DNA from: Eledone cirrhosa
Lineage: Eukaryota
Reading direction: 5' to 3'
DNA: 64,000 nt
NCBI GenBank assembly: GCA_964016885.1
Contig: OZ024742.1
Coordinates: 241,614,001 to 241,678,000, forward strand
The notes beneath the pieces were generated by a model that was given only the letters and a program-made list of their open reading frames with translations, did no database searches and was not told the origin of the DNA. A program made the position numbers and the translations under genes. Of this stretch, positions 4,298-48,868 are shown piece after piece; position 1 is the stretch's first letter, and the number at the start of each line of letters is the position of its first letter.

Positions 4298-5588
4298 CAG
4301 GGTGGGGCATAAAAACTGTTACAAAATAAAATGCAAATAGTTCTTGAAAAAAAACATTTATTTCAAGATCTGACTTCAACAAATAGTAAGTAATATACTA
4401 TTAAACAATTGCACAAAAATGTATTCGAAATGCTTTCCTCTAGCGCTCACTACTGTTCGAAATCTTCTAGTAATGTCTTCGATGGCTGGACGAACAGTTT
4501 CCATGGGTATTTTCTCCCATACTTTATTCAGTTTTGATTTTAGAGTTTCAATATTTTGGCTAAGAGTAGAGCAGGCTTCACTCTCAAGAATTGACCATAA
4601 AGAAAAATCAAGAGAGTTGAGATCTGGTGATGTGGGAGGCCACTCTTACTTACTTATCCATGCAGGACAATGGTCTCTACACCACTGTTGTGTGGCTCGT
4701 CGCTCCATCTTGTTGGAGAGTCCAAATGTCATCGCCATAAACAGATGTGCACCATGGCATCAGTGTTCCTTCCAAAATATCCTTTATGTAAAATTCTTTG
4801 TTAATTGAAACTCCGTGAGGCACAAAAATCAGAGGAGACTTCCCTCTTTCAGAAATGGCTGCCCAAACCATCACTGATGCTGGTTTCTGTGTTCTGAACA
4901 CTTTTCCTACACTTGAAGGAATTGATTTGAGACTTTTTGCAAGTACTCGATCATTTTGATGATTGTGAGACTGCTGCACAGTGAATAAATTCTCATCTGT
5001 AAAGATGATGTTTTGCAGCGTGCCATCCTTGATACGGTTCAATAACAGTTTACTTCTGGAGAGCCTCTTTTCAATTGTGGCTGCAGAAAGAAGCTCCCTC
5101 TTTTGGAACTTAGAGGGTAACATCCGCAGATCATCTCGACATATCCTCTGCATAGTTCTCGGCGATGTTTCTGCTTCTTCTGCCATTTTTCTCATGGACC
5201 TTCTTTGATTACGCCTTATTTTTTCCCTCACACTTTTAACGAGTTTTGGTGTTCTTGAGGTGCGAGGGCGTCCGGATTGAGGTCTGTCTTTGGTCGAGGA
5301 AGTTTCATTAAATCGATCGATTGCCCCTTTGATCAACATTCTTTTGATCTTAAGAATTTACCCCAGTTTAAATATCTTGGGTGGGGTCAGGCCTTTTTCA
5401 TGCTTCTCTATTATGAACTTTCTTTTCAATTCTATGGACATTGCAAATTGTTAATGGAGTAATGTTCTGAAAAATAGTTAATATGGTTATAGTGCATGGA
5501 TTTGATACAAATATATTAGTTATATTAGCAACATAATGTATTTTTAAATTGATTTAAAACTTTGTAACAGGAATTATGCCCGACCCTG
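4298..5588 (-). mobile_element. Tc1/mariner superfamily DNA transposon (maT/DD37D-like), full length, degenerate
   Basis: ~28-bp TIRs cagggtggggcataaaaactgttacaaa / tttgtaacaggaattatgcccgaccctg, TA flanks, 1291 bp. Confidence 0.92.
4420..5441 (-). pseudogene. Frameshifted DDD transposase
   Basis: GRPR linker, IIFTDE, VMVWAAIS, QQDGA, then in another frame WPPTSPDLNSLDFSLWSILE; stops and frameshifts near 4650-4690 and ~5400. Confidence 0.9.
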
Positions 5589-9122: not shown

Positions 9123-9504
9123 TAATAATAATAAATTTGAAGACTAAAATCCAAAGAGGGCTTGATAAGAATAAATATATATCAAATATATAAGAACCCT
9201 AGAGCAAATATTTATTAAAATAACAGATTATCGCTATCTATTTATATAGCATGTATTGAGTTAGACTCTCAAAATAGTCTCATTACAGTAAATTAGCTCT
9301 AGGAAAAAGATATTTTCGAGCCATATATAACTGAACAAAAAGGAAAAACGAACACAGACATATATATATATGTGTGTTCAAATCGTAATGGACCAAAATC
9401 GCTAAGGTGAAAAAAATACTAACTTCAGACAATAGGGTTTGCTAGACTCAATTTAAGAATAAATTAAGAAAAATAAATACAAACCTGTATTGCGTTAACT
9501 ACCA

Positions 9505-9577
9505 TCACCCAGACGGTATTTGATAGAACCGTTTCGCAATGTTAGATATACCAAATTCCAGGCTCATCAGTGGGTGA
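9505..9577 (-). ncRNA. Canonical type I hammerhead ribozyme, family B, intact core
   Basis: tcaccca-CTGATGA-gc...gc-GAAA-cggt tctatcaaat accg-TC-tgggtga (GUC cleavage triplet). Confidence 0.92.
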
Positions 9578-9861
9578 AGAAATTAGTATCCTCCTCACTT
9601 CTAAATCAAATACTTCTAACTCAATACATGCTTTTGATATTTTCGGCTCCGTTAATTTGTAGAGCTATTTCAAATGTCGTGTAGACTCGGCTGCTATTTT
9701 TAGTGGTGTAAGTCTGCGCGACACGCTAAGTTCGGGAACCATGTGCGTTATATATATATACGCACAATTTCCAGTTTTCTATTTGATTTAGAAGTGAGGA
9801 GGATACTAATTTCTTCACCCACTGATGAGCCTGGAATTTGGTATATCTCTTCACAAATAAT

Positions 9862-10041
9862 TGTTTCTACTTTTGGCACAAGGCCAGCAATTACCCAGTG
9901 CATTACTGGTACTTTATTTTATCGACCCCGTAAGGATGAAAGGCAAAGTTAACCTCGGCGGGATTTGAACTCAGAATGGCAAGGACCGTAACTCTATGCG
10001 TCAAAGCATGGCGTCCGACCCTCTACCGATACTGCCAATCC
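9862..10041 (-). mobile_element. tRNA-derived SINE, full length, with 19-bp TSD
   Basis: TSD atatctcttcacaaataat at 9843-9861 and 10042-10060. Confidence 0.93.
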
Positions 10042-10151
10042 ATATCTCTTCACAAATAATATTGCGAAATGGTTCTATCAAAGACCGTCATCCCTCTCTC
10101 TCCCCCTCTCCCTCCTTTCTCTCTCTCTCTCGCGCTCTCTCTCTTTCTTTC

Positions 10152-22937: not shown

Positions 22938-23333
22938 TATAAAGTATGTCCATAGAATCATTTGATAATATATATACACCATTTCCTCTCCCAATTAGCA
23001 TAATTGACCACACAAAAAATCAATTAGACCAGGCTTTAAGATTAAAAGGTATCTATGAAGAAATAGTAGTTAAATAAACTACAGCAATCTCATCGCGATC
23101 AACCGCCTTAGAATATTTACCCAACATTTCAACAGCACGTGGAAATCGATTAAATATACCGTCAACCATACACAATTAGGTATAAAATTAAAGTTAGAAG
23201 AACAAAATGCATATACACATACCAGGATCACGTTTCTACCCTAGGGTTTCGTTCGCTTTCGGAAATATCCTATTAAGGATAAAATCTCGAGCTTCGAACT
23301 CGTCAGGAAACAAACTCATTTGGACAAAGTATG

Positions 23334-29967: not shown

Positions 29968-30255
29968 GGCTTAGTGGTTAGAGCATTCGGCTTGCAATCG
30001 GAAGGTTTAGTGGTTAGAACATTGGGCTTGCAATCGGAAGGTTTAGTGGTTAGAGCATTGGGCTTGCAATAGGAAGGTTTAGTGGTTAGAGCATTGGGCT
30101 TGCAATCGGAAGGTTTAGTGGTTAGAGCATTGGGCTTGCAATCGGAAGGTTTAGTGGTTAGAGCATTGGGCTTGCAATCGGAAGGTTTAGTGGTTAGAGC
30201 ATTGGGCTTGCAATCGGAAGGTTTAGTGGTTAGCGCATTGGGCTTGCAATCGGGA
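29968..30255 (+). repeat. Tandem array of 8 x 36 bp made from a tRNA-derived SINE head (A-box plus anticodon arm)
   Basis: Unit ggtttagtggttagagcattgggcttgcaatcggaa, starting at 29968, 30004 ... 30220; no spacers. Confidence 0.92.
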
Positions 30256-33731: not shown

Positions 33732-33760
33732 AACACAACTCCAGGTGTCTAGTACAGGTA

Positions 33761-34737
33761 ATCGATTACCTGTACTAGACACAGAGCTCTGGTTAGATAC
33801 CATTAACAACCAAAAACAAATCCTCCATTCCCATTATGCCAAACCCATGACTTCCAAACATCTGATCCACCGAAACTCGGCCATTTCGGACCATACCAAA
33901 ATCAACATACTGATTGCGGATTTGGTACGGGTGATGAGAAATGTGTCCCGCATGTGCAACCCCGAAGAACTAGAGAGACACATACAACACTTCATCCACC
34001 GTATGCAGTTCTCTGGCTACAATCAGAGAGATAGAATCAGAGTGTATAGAGGAGCCAGAACCAAATGGGAAAAAATGGTAAATAATGACATAAATGGGAC
34101 CTGCCCCTTGTATAGGAGCAAATTTTGGAATAGAATAGAAAGAACTAGGAACAAGGCTAATAGAATAAACTCATGGTATGATAGCAATAAATACCAGAGT
34201 GTAATGTTCATCGATACAACCCCTAGAGGCGAACTAGCCTACAAATTTAGAAGGGCCCTAAATAAACATAAACTCAATATTAAGATAGTAGAAAGACCAG
34301 GTACCTCCGTAAAAACACTTATTAGCAAGACATACCCTTTCCAAAGACCCTTATGTATAGATAAGAAATGTATAACCTGTAAAATAAGCCCCCATATTAA
34401 CTGTAAAACTAGAAATGTAGTGTATAGCATAAGATGTACTGAAGGACAATGTAGAAACAAAAATATAGTGTACATAGGTGAGACAGCTCGTAGTATAGGG
34501 GAACGGATAAATGAACACTGGCGAGACCTTCAAGATAATAAAGAATCATCTGTACTCTACCAACATGCTAAGATAGAACACAAGGGTGAATTAGAGAACA
34601 TAGAAATAAAAATAGAATCTACACACAGAAAAGATGCAATGTTTAGACAAATTACAGAGGCAATAAACATAAAAGAATTACAACCAAAATTAAATAGAAA
34701 ATATGAGTGGAACAGCAACATCACAACTTACAATTAA
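33761..34737 (+). pseudogene. 5'-truncated Penelope-like element ORF (PLE-A): RT C-terminus/thumb, Cys-rich linker and GIY-YIG endonuclease (Neptune/Nematis-like), frame uninterrupted
   Basis: LPVLD, SGY, PLYRSKFWNR, CxxxxCxxC linker, VVY..C...YIGET.R....R..EH, H....H, RQITEAI, LNRKYEW. Confidence 0.92.
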
Positions 34738-34949
34738 GGACAAAATGAAAACACACACACACATAGAACAAACAACCAACCAATAACATGTAAATAAATA
34801 AATAAATAAACAAATAGATAAATGAACATAAACACACACAGACACCCGGATGTGGCGCATGCGCAAACTGAGCACACAACACACACACAGAAACAAAATG
34901 GCGTAGGACAGAACAAAGGAGAGGCACGGAGACAAAGAAAGGAATCCCC

Positions 34950-34994
34950 AGTCACTGAAGAGGTCACAGAGTGTGTGACGAAAGGACTATGACT
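34950..34994 (+). ncRNA. Minimal type I hammerhead ribozyme in the PLE-A 3'UTR, intact core
   Basis: agtca-CTGAAGA-g gtcaca gagtg tgtgac-GAAA-ggac-TA-tgact. Confidence 0.88.
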
Positions 34995-35159
34995 ATATAT
35001 AAACAACTATCTGGTTGTGGAACCAACCAACCAACCAGAAATTTATAAGTTTATAAATTTGTAAATTTATAAATATATAATAAATTGAAGTGAAACCAAC
35101 TGGTGCGTGTGTTTCTTATTGGCAACATGACCCTCCCAAAGTATAACAATATATATATA

Positions 35160-38708: not shown

Positions 38709-39542
38709 TTATAATTTAAAAAATATATGATCAACACTACTGTGTTTTTTTTTGCAAAATGACAATAATTTTTTAGCCAGATAGAAATACCTTAATTCAA
38801 GTACATATAGTCCGTCTGTATCGATCTAGAGAATATTAAATATTAAATCTATACTTACAGACGTAAAATGGCAACTGCCTGGTGCCTAGACAAGTTTAAA
38901 TTTCAAAATTCAAACCTTTTCAGCAGATCGGGCGGAACTTCAAAACATAAACCTGTTTCACAAGGGATGTTATACTAATGAAATAATTAATTAATTACGG
39001 AACAACTATTTATAAAATAATTATTAGTGAAGTAATCAATTTTCTGTGATCTTCAGTAGGCACCCAGAAATTAAAATCACTTCTCCTAAGATAATATCTT
39101 AAGACTGATCTGTCGCAAGCCTAATACATGTGCTTTTGCACACGACCTTCTCAGCATTCTGGCTCATATCCATGGCGCTAGAAATAGCAGCCGTGAATAT
39201 GTGATTATGAATTCAGCTCAACCGTAGGAGCAGATTAATTTCAGTTTAGTAGTCAGTTACAAATATTAAGCTCTAAGAAAATACTTCTGAGCATTACATT
39301 ATAATTTAAAAAAATATATGATCAACACTACTGTGATTTTTTTGCAAAATGACAATAATTTTTTAGCCAGATAGAAATACCTTAATTCAAGTACATATAG
39401 TCCGTCTGTATCGATCTAGAGAATATTAAATATTAAATCTATACTTACAGACGTAAAATGGCAACTGCCTGGTGCCTAGACAAGTTTAAATTTCAAAATT
39501 CAAACCTTTTCAGCAGATCGGGCGGAACTTCAAAACATAAAC

Positions 39543-40472: not shown

Positions 40473-40625
40473 ATGCTTTGACGTATAGAGTTACGGCCCT
40501 TGCCATTCTGAGTTCAAATCCCGCCAAGGTTAACTTTGTCTTTCATCTTTACGGGGTCGATAAAATAAAGTACCAGTAATGCACTGGGTATTTGCTAGAC
40601 TTGTGCCTAACGTAGAAACAATTAT
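40473..40625 (+). mobile_element. tRNA-derived SINE, 5'-truncated
   Basis: Family consensus. Confidence 0.88.
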
Positions 40626-40656
40626 ATATCTATATATATCTATATATATATATATA

Positions 40657-40710
<54 letters not shown>

Positions 40711-40715
<5 letters not shown>

Positions 40716-41770
40716 AAGGCATGTATTGAGTTAGAAACTCAAAATAGTCTCTTACAATAAAATAGCTCTAGGAAAGAGGTTTTTCCGAGCCGTATAATAT
40801 AACTGAACAAAAAAGAAAAATGAACACAGACATATACATATATGTGTTCAAATCGTAAGGGACCAGATTCGCTAAGCTGAAAAGAATACTAGCTACAGAC
40901 AATAGGGTTTGCCTGACTCAATTTAAGAATAAATCAAACCAGAATTGTGGCAACTACCAATCACCCGGACAGTTTAGATAATACTGTTTCGCAATATTAA
41001 TTGTGAAGAGGAATACCAAAATTCTAGCTTATCAGCGGGTGAAGAATTATTAGTATCCTGGTAACTTTTAACTATATTAAAAAACTGGATATTGTGCGTA
41101 TATATAACGCACATGGTGCCATCACTTAGCGTGTCTCACAAACTCACGCGCCACTAAAAATAGCAGCCGGGTTTACTCGACATTTGAATTAGCTCGACGA
41201 ATTAACGGAGCCGAATATATAAAAGGCATGTATTGAGTTTTTGTTCAGTTATATTATACGGCTCGGAAAAACCTCTTTCCTAGAACTAATTTTATTGTAA
41301 GAGACTATTTTGAGTTTCTAACTCAATACATGCCTTTGATATATTCGGCTCCGTTAATTCGTCGAGCTAATTCAAACGTCGAGTAAAACCGGCTGCTATT
41401 TTTAGTGGCGTGAGTTTGCGAGACACGCTAAGTGCTGGCACCATGTGCGTTATATATACGCACACTATCCAGTTTTTTAATATACTTAGAAGTGACCAGG
41501 ATACTAATAATTCTTCACCCGCTGATAAGCTAGAATGTTGGAATTCCTCTTCACAATTAATATTGCGAAACAGTATTATCAAAACTGTCCGGGTGATTGG
41601 TAGTTGCCACAATTCTGGTTTGTATTTATTTTTCTTGATTTATTCTTAAATTGAGTCGAGCAAACCATATTGTCTGTAGTATTCTTTTCACCTTAGCGAA
41701 TCTGGTCCCTTACGATTTGGACACATATATGTATATGTTTGTGTTCATTTTTCTTTTTTGTTCAGTCATA
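40711..41770. mobile_element. Family B element: two inverted, differently permuted ~510-nt monomers, each with a hammerhead (40961-41042 minus; 41515-41596 plus; core CTGATAA)
   Basis: Terminal redundancy within each arm; strand switch at ~41239; (TA)n on both sides. Confidence 0.92.
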
Positions 41771-42143
41771 CTATATATATATATATATATATATATAGTA
41801 TGACTGATATATATATATATTAGGTATAAATATATTATATATATATGTATATATACAAGTATATGAAGGTGCGCAGACTCGTGGTTAAATTATCGACCAG
41901 AATCTTGAGCAAAACACTTTTCACTTTTCACTTTTCACGTTGCTGTATTCCACTTAGCTGAACACGAATACCAGATATAGATTGAGGCTTAAACATGCAA
42001 TAGATTTCTGTCATAACCGGCGGGAAGGTCAGAGATGAAGGGTGGTATGTATCTTGTACGGTCTGTTGCTTAACGCATATGAAACCGCGGTAATCTCCGG
42101 TGTGATGAGCTTCTGAGTTTAGAACAGACTTTAACCTTTCTTT

Positions 42144-42808: not shown

Positions 42809-43890
42809 TATATATTACACAAAGAGAAATGTGTTACACAGTGAGAAGTGTGTAAAGAATTATTACAAGTGATTTTACCGTTACTGTATAGGGAACAATA
42901 TCTACAGGTAAGCAATTAAATAGAAAAAAAACCAGATCAGAATCAAATCTCTGGATTGGAATTTTAAATCACAAACCTTATAACTATATTTTGCTGATAC
43001 GAACCTAGTTTTTCGTTTCACCATTTATATGTGTCACCACCTATATGTGTAGAATAACAGTCCAACATGGATCATCAGTCAGCAAAATGCGAGACTGAAT
43101 CCTGCACATCTAACCTTCATAGCTAGAGAGATTGCAAATAGACACGCTGGCCAGAGTGGGCGAAATCACGTGTTATTCGAATCAAATAACGGCTCTCATG
43201 GATTGGGGAGGATGCTAGAAAGTACAGCCCAACCATGCGAATTATTAGCTCAACAATTTGGAGCTCATTAATTATACAAAAATCGGAATTAAGAGTATTC
43301 CGCAGTTCACTGTAATAATAATAATAATAATAGTATTATTAGCTCAAAGAAGAATAGAGAATTTCCTTCCGAGCTCAAATGCAAGTATATATTACACAAA
43401 GAGAAATGTGTTACACAGTGAGAAGTGTGTAAAGAATTATTACAAGTAATTTTACCGTTACTGTATAGGGAACAATATCTACAGGTAAGCAATTAAATAG
43501 AAAAAAACCAGATCAGAATCAAATCTCTGTTATTCTACACATATAGGTGGTGACACATATAAGTGGTGAAACGAAGCTAGGGTCGTATCAGCAAAATATA
43601 GTTATAAGGTTTGTGATTTAAAATTCCAATCCAGAGATTTGATTCTGATCTGGTTTTTTTCTATTTAATTGCTAACCTGTAGATATTGTTCTCTGTACAG
43701 TTACGGTAAAATCACTTGTAATAATTCTTTACACACTTCTCACTGTGTAACACATTTCTCTTTGTGTAATATATACTTACATTTGAGCTCAGAAGGAAAT
43801 TCTCTATTCTTCTTTGAGCTAATAATACTATTATTATTATTATTATTATTACAGTGAACTGCGGAATACTCTTAATTCCGATTTTTGTAT
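42806..43890. mobile_element. Family F element: 577-nt monomer plus ~147-nt redundancy plus inverted arm
   Basis: 42806-42953 is repeated at 43383-43529; 43527-43890 is inverted; (TA)n on both sides. Confidence 0.92.
42988..43088 (-). ncRNA. Type I hammerhead ribozyme, family F, intact core
   Basis: ttttgctga-CTGATGA-t ccat...atgg t-GAAA-cgaa..ttcg-TA-tcagcaaaa. Confidence 0.88.
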
Positions 43891-47868: not shown

Positions 47869-48868
47869 AAGTAGGTACATGTACATACACATATGTATAC
47901 AGACGTACAGTAGTATGTATATATATATATATACATACATGCACATATATATATATATATATATGTACGTATGGATTCACCGAACATTTATTATAATGCA
48001 CGGTGTGTTTGTAAACAAACATCCCGTATTAAGCCGTAGTGTCTAGCAACCATCGTTGCTCGTTTGTTCAACACTGACAAAGGAACGCTGTACTAGTTTC
48101 AAGCTTATTAGCTATCCTCAGCAACGTATACCTTCCTGCCAGATTGTTGAACGTATATACTTACCTTATGCATATTAAGGGCTGAGTAGCCCAATTTGCA
48201 TATCGAGTGGGTTAATCGGCCGGGTGCACCGAAAACGATAAACGGAAAAAATGAAACAAAATTTCATTTCCCACTCTTAGTACGGCTGTTACTTATATAT
48301 AAGTAGGTACACGTACATACACATATGTATACATACGTACAGTAGTATGTATATATATATATACATACATGCACACATATATATATATATATGTACGTAT
48401 GGATTCACCGAACATTTATTATAATGCTCGGTGTGTTTGTAAACAAACATCCCGTATTAAGCCGTAGTGTCTAGCAACCATCGTTGCTCGTTTGTTCAAC
48501 ACTGACAAAGGAACGAGGCATAAGGTAAGTATATACGTTCAACAATCTGGCAGGAAGGTATACGTTGTTGACGATAGCTAATAAGCTTGAAACTAGTACA
48601 GCGTTCCTTTGTCAGTGTTGAACAAACGAGCAACGATGGTTGCTAGTCACTACGGCTTAATACGGGATGTTTGTTTACAAACACACCGAGCATTATAATA
48701 AATGTTCGGTGAATCCATACGTACATATATATATATGTGTGCATGTATGTATATATATATATACATACTACTGTACGTCTGTATACATATGTGTATGTAC
48801 GTGTACCTACTTATATTTAAGTAACAGCCGTACTAATAGTGGGAAATGAAATTTCGTTTCATTTTTTA
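47869..48868. mobile_element. Family G element: 432-nt monomer plus ~215-nt redundancy plus inverted arm
   Basis: aagtaggtac at 47869 and 48301; 48518-48868 is inverted. Confidence 0.92.
48085..48127 (-). ncRNA. Minimal type I hammerhead, family G, intact core (second copy 48562-48604 plus, core TTGACGA)
   Basis: acgttg-CTGAGGA-t agct aata agct t-GAAA-ctag-TA-cagcgt. Confidence 0.88.

Follow-up and report, generated by a model that had tools for sequence, protein, structure and literature searches.

In the window, the 64,000-nucleotide stretch of the Eledone cirrhosa assembly that we analyzed, two head-to-head arms of one non-coding unit of ~517 nt lie at 40714..41766 between (TA)n runs (Table 1). 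Copies of an 18-mer at 40715 and 41222 give the left arm a period of 507 nt, and copies of an 11-mer at 41239 and 41756 give the right arm a period of 517 nt. When compared with a doubled left-arm monomer, the right arm matched in a single alignment (501 of 544 columns, 92%) that crosses the left arm's end-to-start junction. Relative to the right arm, the left arm lacks 15 and 1 nt and has 4 and 2 nt extra, and the 10-nt gap between the two periods results from these indels. The longest ATG-initiated ORF in the unit encodes 68 amino acids, and a pattern scan located one type I hammerhead in each arm, with the sense of both pointing outward. A previous reading of the sequence alone had described these terminal repeats and periods, the read-through of the left arm's junction, a single hammerhead per monomer and the lack of a meaningful ORF, and our analysis confirmed each of these points. 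A match this long and this similar, together with at least 3,245 first-look candidates for the unit in the 3.0-Gb genome, rules out chance as the source of the similarity between the arms. Truncation of both arms just past one unit accounts for the terminal repeats of 18 and 11 nt, which are accidental. With (TA)n on both flanks, a target-site duplication would be masked at this locus.

Table 1. Features of the window discussed in the text (positions counted from the first nucleotide of the window).
Feature	Position	Strand	Remarks
Left arm, second head-to-head insertion	9249..9613	-	other subfamily, about 79-82% alike; canonical core at 9570, loop II deletion
Right arm, second insertion	9614..10089	+	dispersed repeat at about 9862-10045; 3' part missing
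Coding PLE 3' fragment	33733-35120	+	334-aa frame, CX4CX2C linker, GIY-YIG
Minimal hammerhead of this PLE fragment	34950-34995		pattern scan
(TA)n run, left flank	40623..40713	.	likely target site
Left arm, about 1.04 units	40714..41239	-	3' end at outer fixed site, merging into (TA)n
86-nt tail, inner to outer fixed 3' end	40714..40802	-	terminal in left arm only
Left-arm type I hammerhead	40961..41042	-	G8>A at 41030; predicted cut after 40968
Head-to-head junction	41238..41239	.	both arms 5'-truncated; 2-nt overlap (TT)
Right arm, about 1.02 units, period 517	41239..41766	+	3' end at inner fixed site, merging into (TA)n
Right-arm type I hammerhead	41515..41596	+	GUC cut site after 41589; G8>A at 41527; stem I 7 bp, stem III 5 bp, stem II base 2 bp, loop II 34 nt
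(TA)n run, right flank	41767..41855	.	right arm merges into it

The arms disagree at 18 of 477 sites in addition to the indels, and the window copy is old. These differences, the different ends of the two arms and the presence among the sampled loci of 39 head-to-head pairs, each with its own junction, argue against a fold-back chimera created during assembly. Such an artefact would be in keeping with the contigs of runs X1 to X3, among whose listed pieces none covers the whole stretch, but we consider its probability negligible. These contigs come from one sample, possibly the assembly's own, and carry no expression information. The best-supported loose end listed among them, (TA)n after 41344, corresponds to the outer fixed site.

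The second head-to-head insertion, at about 9.6 kb, represents another subfamily that shows the same two ends as the window family. Its arm at 9249-9604 begins in the same phase as the window's left arm, and its piece at 9614-9861 crosses the left arm's junction by about 21 nt, as previously described. The dispersed repeat in this insertion, presumably a SINE, is bounded by a direct repeat of ~19 nt, and similar sequence occurs at about 40490-40590. Five 5' ends at 235-237 in this subfamily were set aside, as they probably reflect an alignment break against the diverged reference. An old and weak relative of the unit was detected on the minus strand at 38843-39233 (profile E, 1.3e-8). Two inverted structures, at 47880-48790 and 43313-43848, also lie between TA runs; their arms are 94% and 97% complementary, each contains a partial tandem by eye, and the pattern scan detected no hammerhead in either. 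A type I hammerhead-like motif at 23306 (minus strand), with a canonical core and a long stem II, is unrelated to the window family. Elsewhere in the window, a 226-aa frame at 4677-5357 (minus strand) with a weak, below-cutoff match to HTH_32 (E, 1.2e-4) is probably a DNA transposon remnant. A 36-bp tandem at 29971-30253 (7.9 copies, 97% alike) is reminiscent of the head of a tRNA, and a 14-bp minisatellite extends over about 2 kb from 52855 on.

Both window hammerheads have the core CUGAUAAG, which carries G8>A, and the canonical core CUGAUGAG was present in 48 of 56 distinct family copies. The X1-X3 contigs have G at 41527 almost without exception, and G8>A is one of seven minority alleles common to both window arms. 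A G8A change abolishes hammerhead cleavage. The same has been described for a G8C change in the available part of one study (PMC11167929). Judging from this base, both window hammerheads are likely inactive. Across the family, 97.9% of the cells in the hammerhead stems were paired, versus 22-42% in slid controls, in 37 copies that had been chosen by a pattern demanding the core (the window arm, 11 copies of the 9.6-kb subfamily and 25 random ones, from 70 distinct pattern matches). In these copies, two-sided changes affected three pairs, one in stem I and two in stem III; this covariation traces to three events that were then inherited, and as many two-sided pairs arose in 338 of 500 shuffles. 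In the minimum-energy fold, stems I and III form and stem II does not, and the isolated core fragment was no stabler than its shuffles (z, -1.09). The unit as a whole gave a linear z of -4.05, and circular folds of four units with 12 shuffles each gave z values of -2.0 to -5.2 in the sense orientation and -2.6 to -3.4 in the antisense. At the window locus, Rfam returned no hammerhead family among six weak matches, and its microRNA matches were rejected as microsatellites. Because loop II is long and the base of stem II comprises only 2 bp, the self-cleavage activity of these hammerheads is uncertain. Cleavage in vitro was reported for one of nine Xenopus retrozymes in the available text of a 2026 survey (bioRxiv 10.64898/2026.07.22.740005).

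To place the locus within its family, we mapped genomic copies on a head-to-tail repeat of window 41250-41766; all copy counts are samples of the best-scoring copies and not of the whole family, each search scoring 40 candidates and yielding at most 30 loci. Loci L001-L090 yielded 121 distinct segments, with edge-cut segments and those below 78% identity left out. Their 3' ends fell mostly at two sites 86 nt apart, 57 at the outer and 44 at the inner site (101 of 121), with 20 elsewhere, whereas the 5' ends were scattered over all ten bins. Since the first query favored the outer end, the count was redone on loci chosen by the central hammerhead region, where 101 arms gave 43 outer, 40 inner and 18 other ends (83 of 101 fixed). 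The sequence-only reading had interpreted the window arms as circular permutations of one sequence and expected the genomic copies to show many phases; instead, what had looked like permutations are the two ends normal for this family and not random phases. It had also expected every copy to span the junction, which was not the case, as 54 of the 121 segments exceed 530 nt. Segment lengths ranged from a few dozen to 1266 nt, with most copies at 0.1-1.5 units and a maximum of 2.4 units, and 15 of 154 segments reached 780 nt. The cut site is traversed in 87 of the 121 segments. Two or more cut sites are spanned in 14 of 121, a count of consecutive hammerheads made by cut-site span and not core by core, in multimers sampled by similarity; at the window locus the two hammerheads are on opposite strands. 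The 2026 survey takes two or more hammerheads in succession at a locus as the mark of an active element. No accumulation of 5' ends was seen at the hammerhead cut site in this family (1 observed versus 0.96 expected). Clusters of 5' ends at 439-450 and 45-56 were rejected as template ends: they coincide with an inverted repeat inside the unit, and a duplicated locus is among them.

The head-to-head pairs followed the same end rule, with one inner and one outer end in 26 of 39, two outer ends in one, two inner ends in none and an end of the "other" class in 12. Among loci L001-L090, no tail-to-tail pairs were detected. Overlaps of 2 nt or more were found at 17 of 23 gapless arm joins, compared with 19.5% for random blunt joins, and a further 14 of 37 joins have a gap; the overlaps fit the joining of two cDNAs by microhomology. 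The element sequence just behind each 3' end starts with TATAT, which suggests that a cut (TA)n end may pair with the RNA at the start site. A TATA-like motif is insufficient on its own, since other such stretches of the unit are seldom used (3 of 121 ends at 487-488, 0 at 202-210). Tandem and inverted copies can also form in DNA, whether from a satellite, a rolling-circle DNA transposon or an extrachromosomal DNA circle; repair or fold-back could generate palindromes, whose arms are able to convert each other. A DNA-level origin is at odds with the strict polarity of the copies, whose 3' ends are fixed in the hammerhead sense and whose 5' ends are ragged, with the exclusively head-to-head arrangement of the pairs among family loci and their one end of each kind, with the use of the same end rule by coding retroelements and with the conserved ribozyme motif. 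We therefore assign it a very low probability.

A sister family shows the same architecture. Its unit is 547-549 nt long, with 2,798 candidates and copies that are 95-99% alike, and it is 59% identical to and colinear with the window unit, likewise without an ORF. Of its arms, 80 of 86 end at two homologous sites 82 nt apart. The core is CUGAGGAG, and its predicted stems are weaker. As in the window family, no pile-up of 5' ends was observed at the cut site (2 observed versus 1.8 expected). The longest sister array comprises 4.03 units, with 7-13 differences per unit pair, none of them recurrent; examples of the family are found at L138:1480-2090 and L169:3643-5852. The sister family is younger than the window family and the better target for RNA work.

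The genome also encodes potential sources of the required enzyme. It holds 10,597 GIY-YIG candidates, and open frames with reverse transcriptase (RT) and GIY-YIG domains are present that contain the CX2-5CxxC linker, a feature of Neptune and Nematis in the available sections of Craig et al. (PMC8557442). Coding Penelope-like elements (PLEs) of this genome form partial tandems and inverted pairs like those of the hammerhead unit, and two coding families also show an AT-rich match behind their ends. One PLE family is represented in the window itself by a 3' fragment with a minimal hammerhead (Table 1). The best 150 matches to this family are 96-100% alike, with frames of over 800 aa; 31 of its 33 readable ends lie at one of two positions separated by 60 nt, and 3 of 4 loci with both ends readable have one of each kind. 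This young family is a candidate helper.

These observations raise the question of whether the unit is merely the pseudo-LTR (pLTR) of a longer coding PLE, with the copies representing its truncated ends. The PLE-like architecture and target are compatible with such an origin, and according to the available part of the 2026 survey, 24 of 57 Xenopus retrozyme families match the termini of annotated elements, nearly all of them PLEs (bioRxiv 10.64898/2026.07.22.740005). Nevertheless, all 54 segments above 530 nt align to successive units and run from one copy of the unit into the next, not into coding sequence as the sequence-only reading had foreseen for a pLTR; the ORF for RT and GIY-YIG that lies between the repeats of autonomous PLEs is absent both from the unit and between units. 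The colinearity of two ORF-less families at 59% identity also counts against it. Neither BLAST of 48 coding loci nor a profile scan of 138 detected a pLTR homologous to the unit; these loci are few relative to the more than 10,000 GIY-YIG candidates and are biased by family. The profile, built from 24 units, had matches in 6 of the 138 loci, whose strand or distance, or a TA run in between, leads us to read them as separate insertions. Among individual candidates, a match beside a GIY-YIG gene at L138 was rejected as a helper pLTR, being a separate sister-family insertion. At another coding locus (L122), a tandem of ~280-nt units with a CUGAAGA...GAAAC core in each copy lies about 1.3-2.4 kb past the ORF and is likely another retrozyme family. 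For the copies studied here, the pLTR interpretation is largely refuted and we give it a low probability, while an ancient descent of the unit from a pLTR is possible.

To characterize the template, we compared variants within and between 63 insertions; several of the compared pairs come from the same insertion and are hence not independent. Of the subfamily-diagnostic sites, 48 of 426 were discordant between tandem passes and 54 of 568 between paired arms, versus 46% between insertions. Private shared variants, defined as those present in at most 3 insertions, numbered 55 in 7,881 sites for tandem passes (7.0 per kb) and 44 in 10,147 sites for paired arms (4.3 per kb), compared with 194 in 886,823 sites between insertions (0.22 per kb). 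Gene conversion between arms could be an alternative source of shared variants. Lengths of up to 2.4 units (4.0 in the sister family) and private variants shared within an insertion support a multimeric, head-to-tail template. The sequence-only reading had proposed a circle or a head-to-tail multimer as the template and had regarded the arms as the strongest evidence of circularity in the window. Head-to-tail copying is upheld by these data, but the two phases are no evidence of circularity, as two such ends, and inverted pairs too, are also seen in coding PLEs. Because coding PLEs also make the same partial tandems, the geometry needs no circle.

The same element and the same two-site priming could thus operate on an uncut linear multimer, or on separate RNA copies between which the enzyme jumps. 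Coding PLEs make identical structures. In the accessible portion of an in vitro study of a PLE, uncut RNA was the main substrate, synthesis began at a site lacking homology to the target, and none of the RNA-seq reads terminated at the cut position (PMC11167929). An internal promoter such as that reported for Penelope, in the available text of PMC2377424, would allow a 1.8-unit copy to renew itself, and copy lengths in the family drop off quickly. Sister-family 5' ends were also more numerous than expected at positions 95-106 (8 versus 2.9), as might follow from a transcription start in a linear template; this pile-up was suggestive in a first sister sample but not significant in a wider one (about 0.45 after correction), and the homologous region of the window family showed no excess (12 observed versus 13.0 expected). 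The private shared variants and the star-like 4.03-unit array are unlike what an old, heterogeneous source array would produce, and the canonical hammerhead has been kept across subfamilies. By analogy, an active ribozyme combined with read-through would favor a re-ligated circle; circular RNA has been demonstrated for coral, mussel and axolotl retrozymes in the available part of PMC7229834. We regard the choice between a circle and an uncut linear multimer as about even, and the linear template with two-site priming as a serious possibility that falls short of an even chance.

Taken together, these data identify the family as a non-coding, hammerhead-bearing element of the animal non-LTR retrozyme, or non-autonomous PLE, kind, with a unit of 517 nt. 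Insertion of the unit into (TA)n runs is likely the work of an enzyme from a Penelope-like retrotransposon, with priming likely occurring at two fixed RNA sites from both sides of a DNA break. Apart from the shape of the template, we hold this explanation with high confidence; with a small RNA circle included, the chances are even. In the proposed mechanism, rare two-hammerhead loci would be transcribed and the RNA cut to a monomer and ligated. A Neptune-type RT/GIY-YIG protein would then nick (TA)n, and each DNA end, paired to a short UAUA directly behind one of the start sites, could prime a cDNA. Each cDNA would extend a variable distance, often beyond one unit, before the two cDNA ends join by microhomology. 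The most specific version of this model, in which both arms come from one hammerhead-made 517-nt RNA circle by UAUA-paired priming at sites 86 nt apart and rolling synthesis, with the two-site handle kept across 40% divergence without a coding parent, is tentative, and we would not yet call it probable.

How animal retrozymes enter the genome has so far been assumed, not shown, and a family of thousands of copies that bears the complete signature of PLE insertion is direct DNA-level support for mobilization by PLEs. The analysis also defines two start sites for in vitro work. It further indicates that two circular permutations of one unit are a PLE footprint and not proof of an RNA circle. If the circular reading is true, the family would offer a minimal substrate for studying how PLEs make tails, tandems and inversions.

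Metazoan non-LTR retrozymes have been described by Cervera and de la Pena (2020, PMC7229834) and by Li, Clavereau and Pollet (2026, bioRxiv 10.64898/2026.07.22.740005), the latter arguing that such retrozymes are non-autonomous PLEs; our comparison extends to the available parts of both papers. The family resembles these retrozymes in its head-to-tail non-coding unit with one type I hammerhead each, its low G+C content, its thousands of copies, the presence of PLEs in the same genome and its predicted mobilization by PLEs. Its unit of 517 nt, known here from DNA alone, exceeds the 170-400 nt circles of the 2020 study (PMC7229834) and falls inside the 51-972 bp of the 2026 survey (bioRxiv 10.64898/2026.07.22.740005). 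In contrast to the long arrays of metazoan retrozymes, its copies are mostly head-to-head pairs of 0.1-1.5 units, and its loop II is unusually long. Neither two fixed ends nor inversions are described in the available parts of either paper (PMC7229834; bioRxiv 10.64898/2026.07.22.740005). Among the titles and abstracts listed by literature searches, none reports the two-end, two-arm pattern for a retrozyme. Plant LTR retrozymes differ in having LTRs, a PBS, a PPT and type III hammerheads, whereas the family has type I hammerheads and no LTR pair.

Among PLEs, non-autonomous Chlamys elements such as MRC1 are similar in that they are partners of PLEs that lack coding sequence, carry pLTRs and insert as multiple head-to-tail copies, in the available text of PMC8557442; they generally resemble their autonomous families at the 3' end (PMC8557442), whereas no similar partner was found here. 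For clades with an N-terminal endonuclease (EN), the same available text reports no canonical hammerhead (PMC8557442), unlike the family. PLE insertions are described as 5'-truncated and partly tandem, with an inverted copy beside them, a 30-40 bp tail on one side and microsatellites as targets (Craig et al., 2021, PMC8557442), and this tail has been shown to correspond to the interval separating two RT start sites (Frangieh et al., 2024, PMC11167929), in the sections available of each. The family differs from the EN+ Neptune-type PLEs covered there in its lack of an ORF, its tail of 86 nt versus 30-40 and its full stems I and III versus their minimal hammerhead; its start sites precede a TATA-like, target-matching motif, whereas the start of the anole element has no such homology in the accessible portion of PMC11167929. 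What it has in common with them, as far as those sections extend, is the truncation of 5' ends, the partial tandems, the inversion of a copy next to the 5' end, the one-sided tail, a microsatellite target and a hammerhead in the repeat (PMC8557442, PMC11167929). The retrozyme class and the PLE tail and inversion are already in print, and the family adds useful mechanistic detail.
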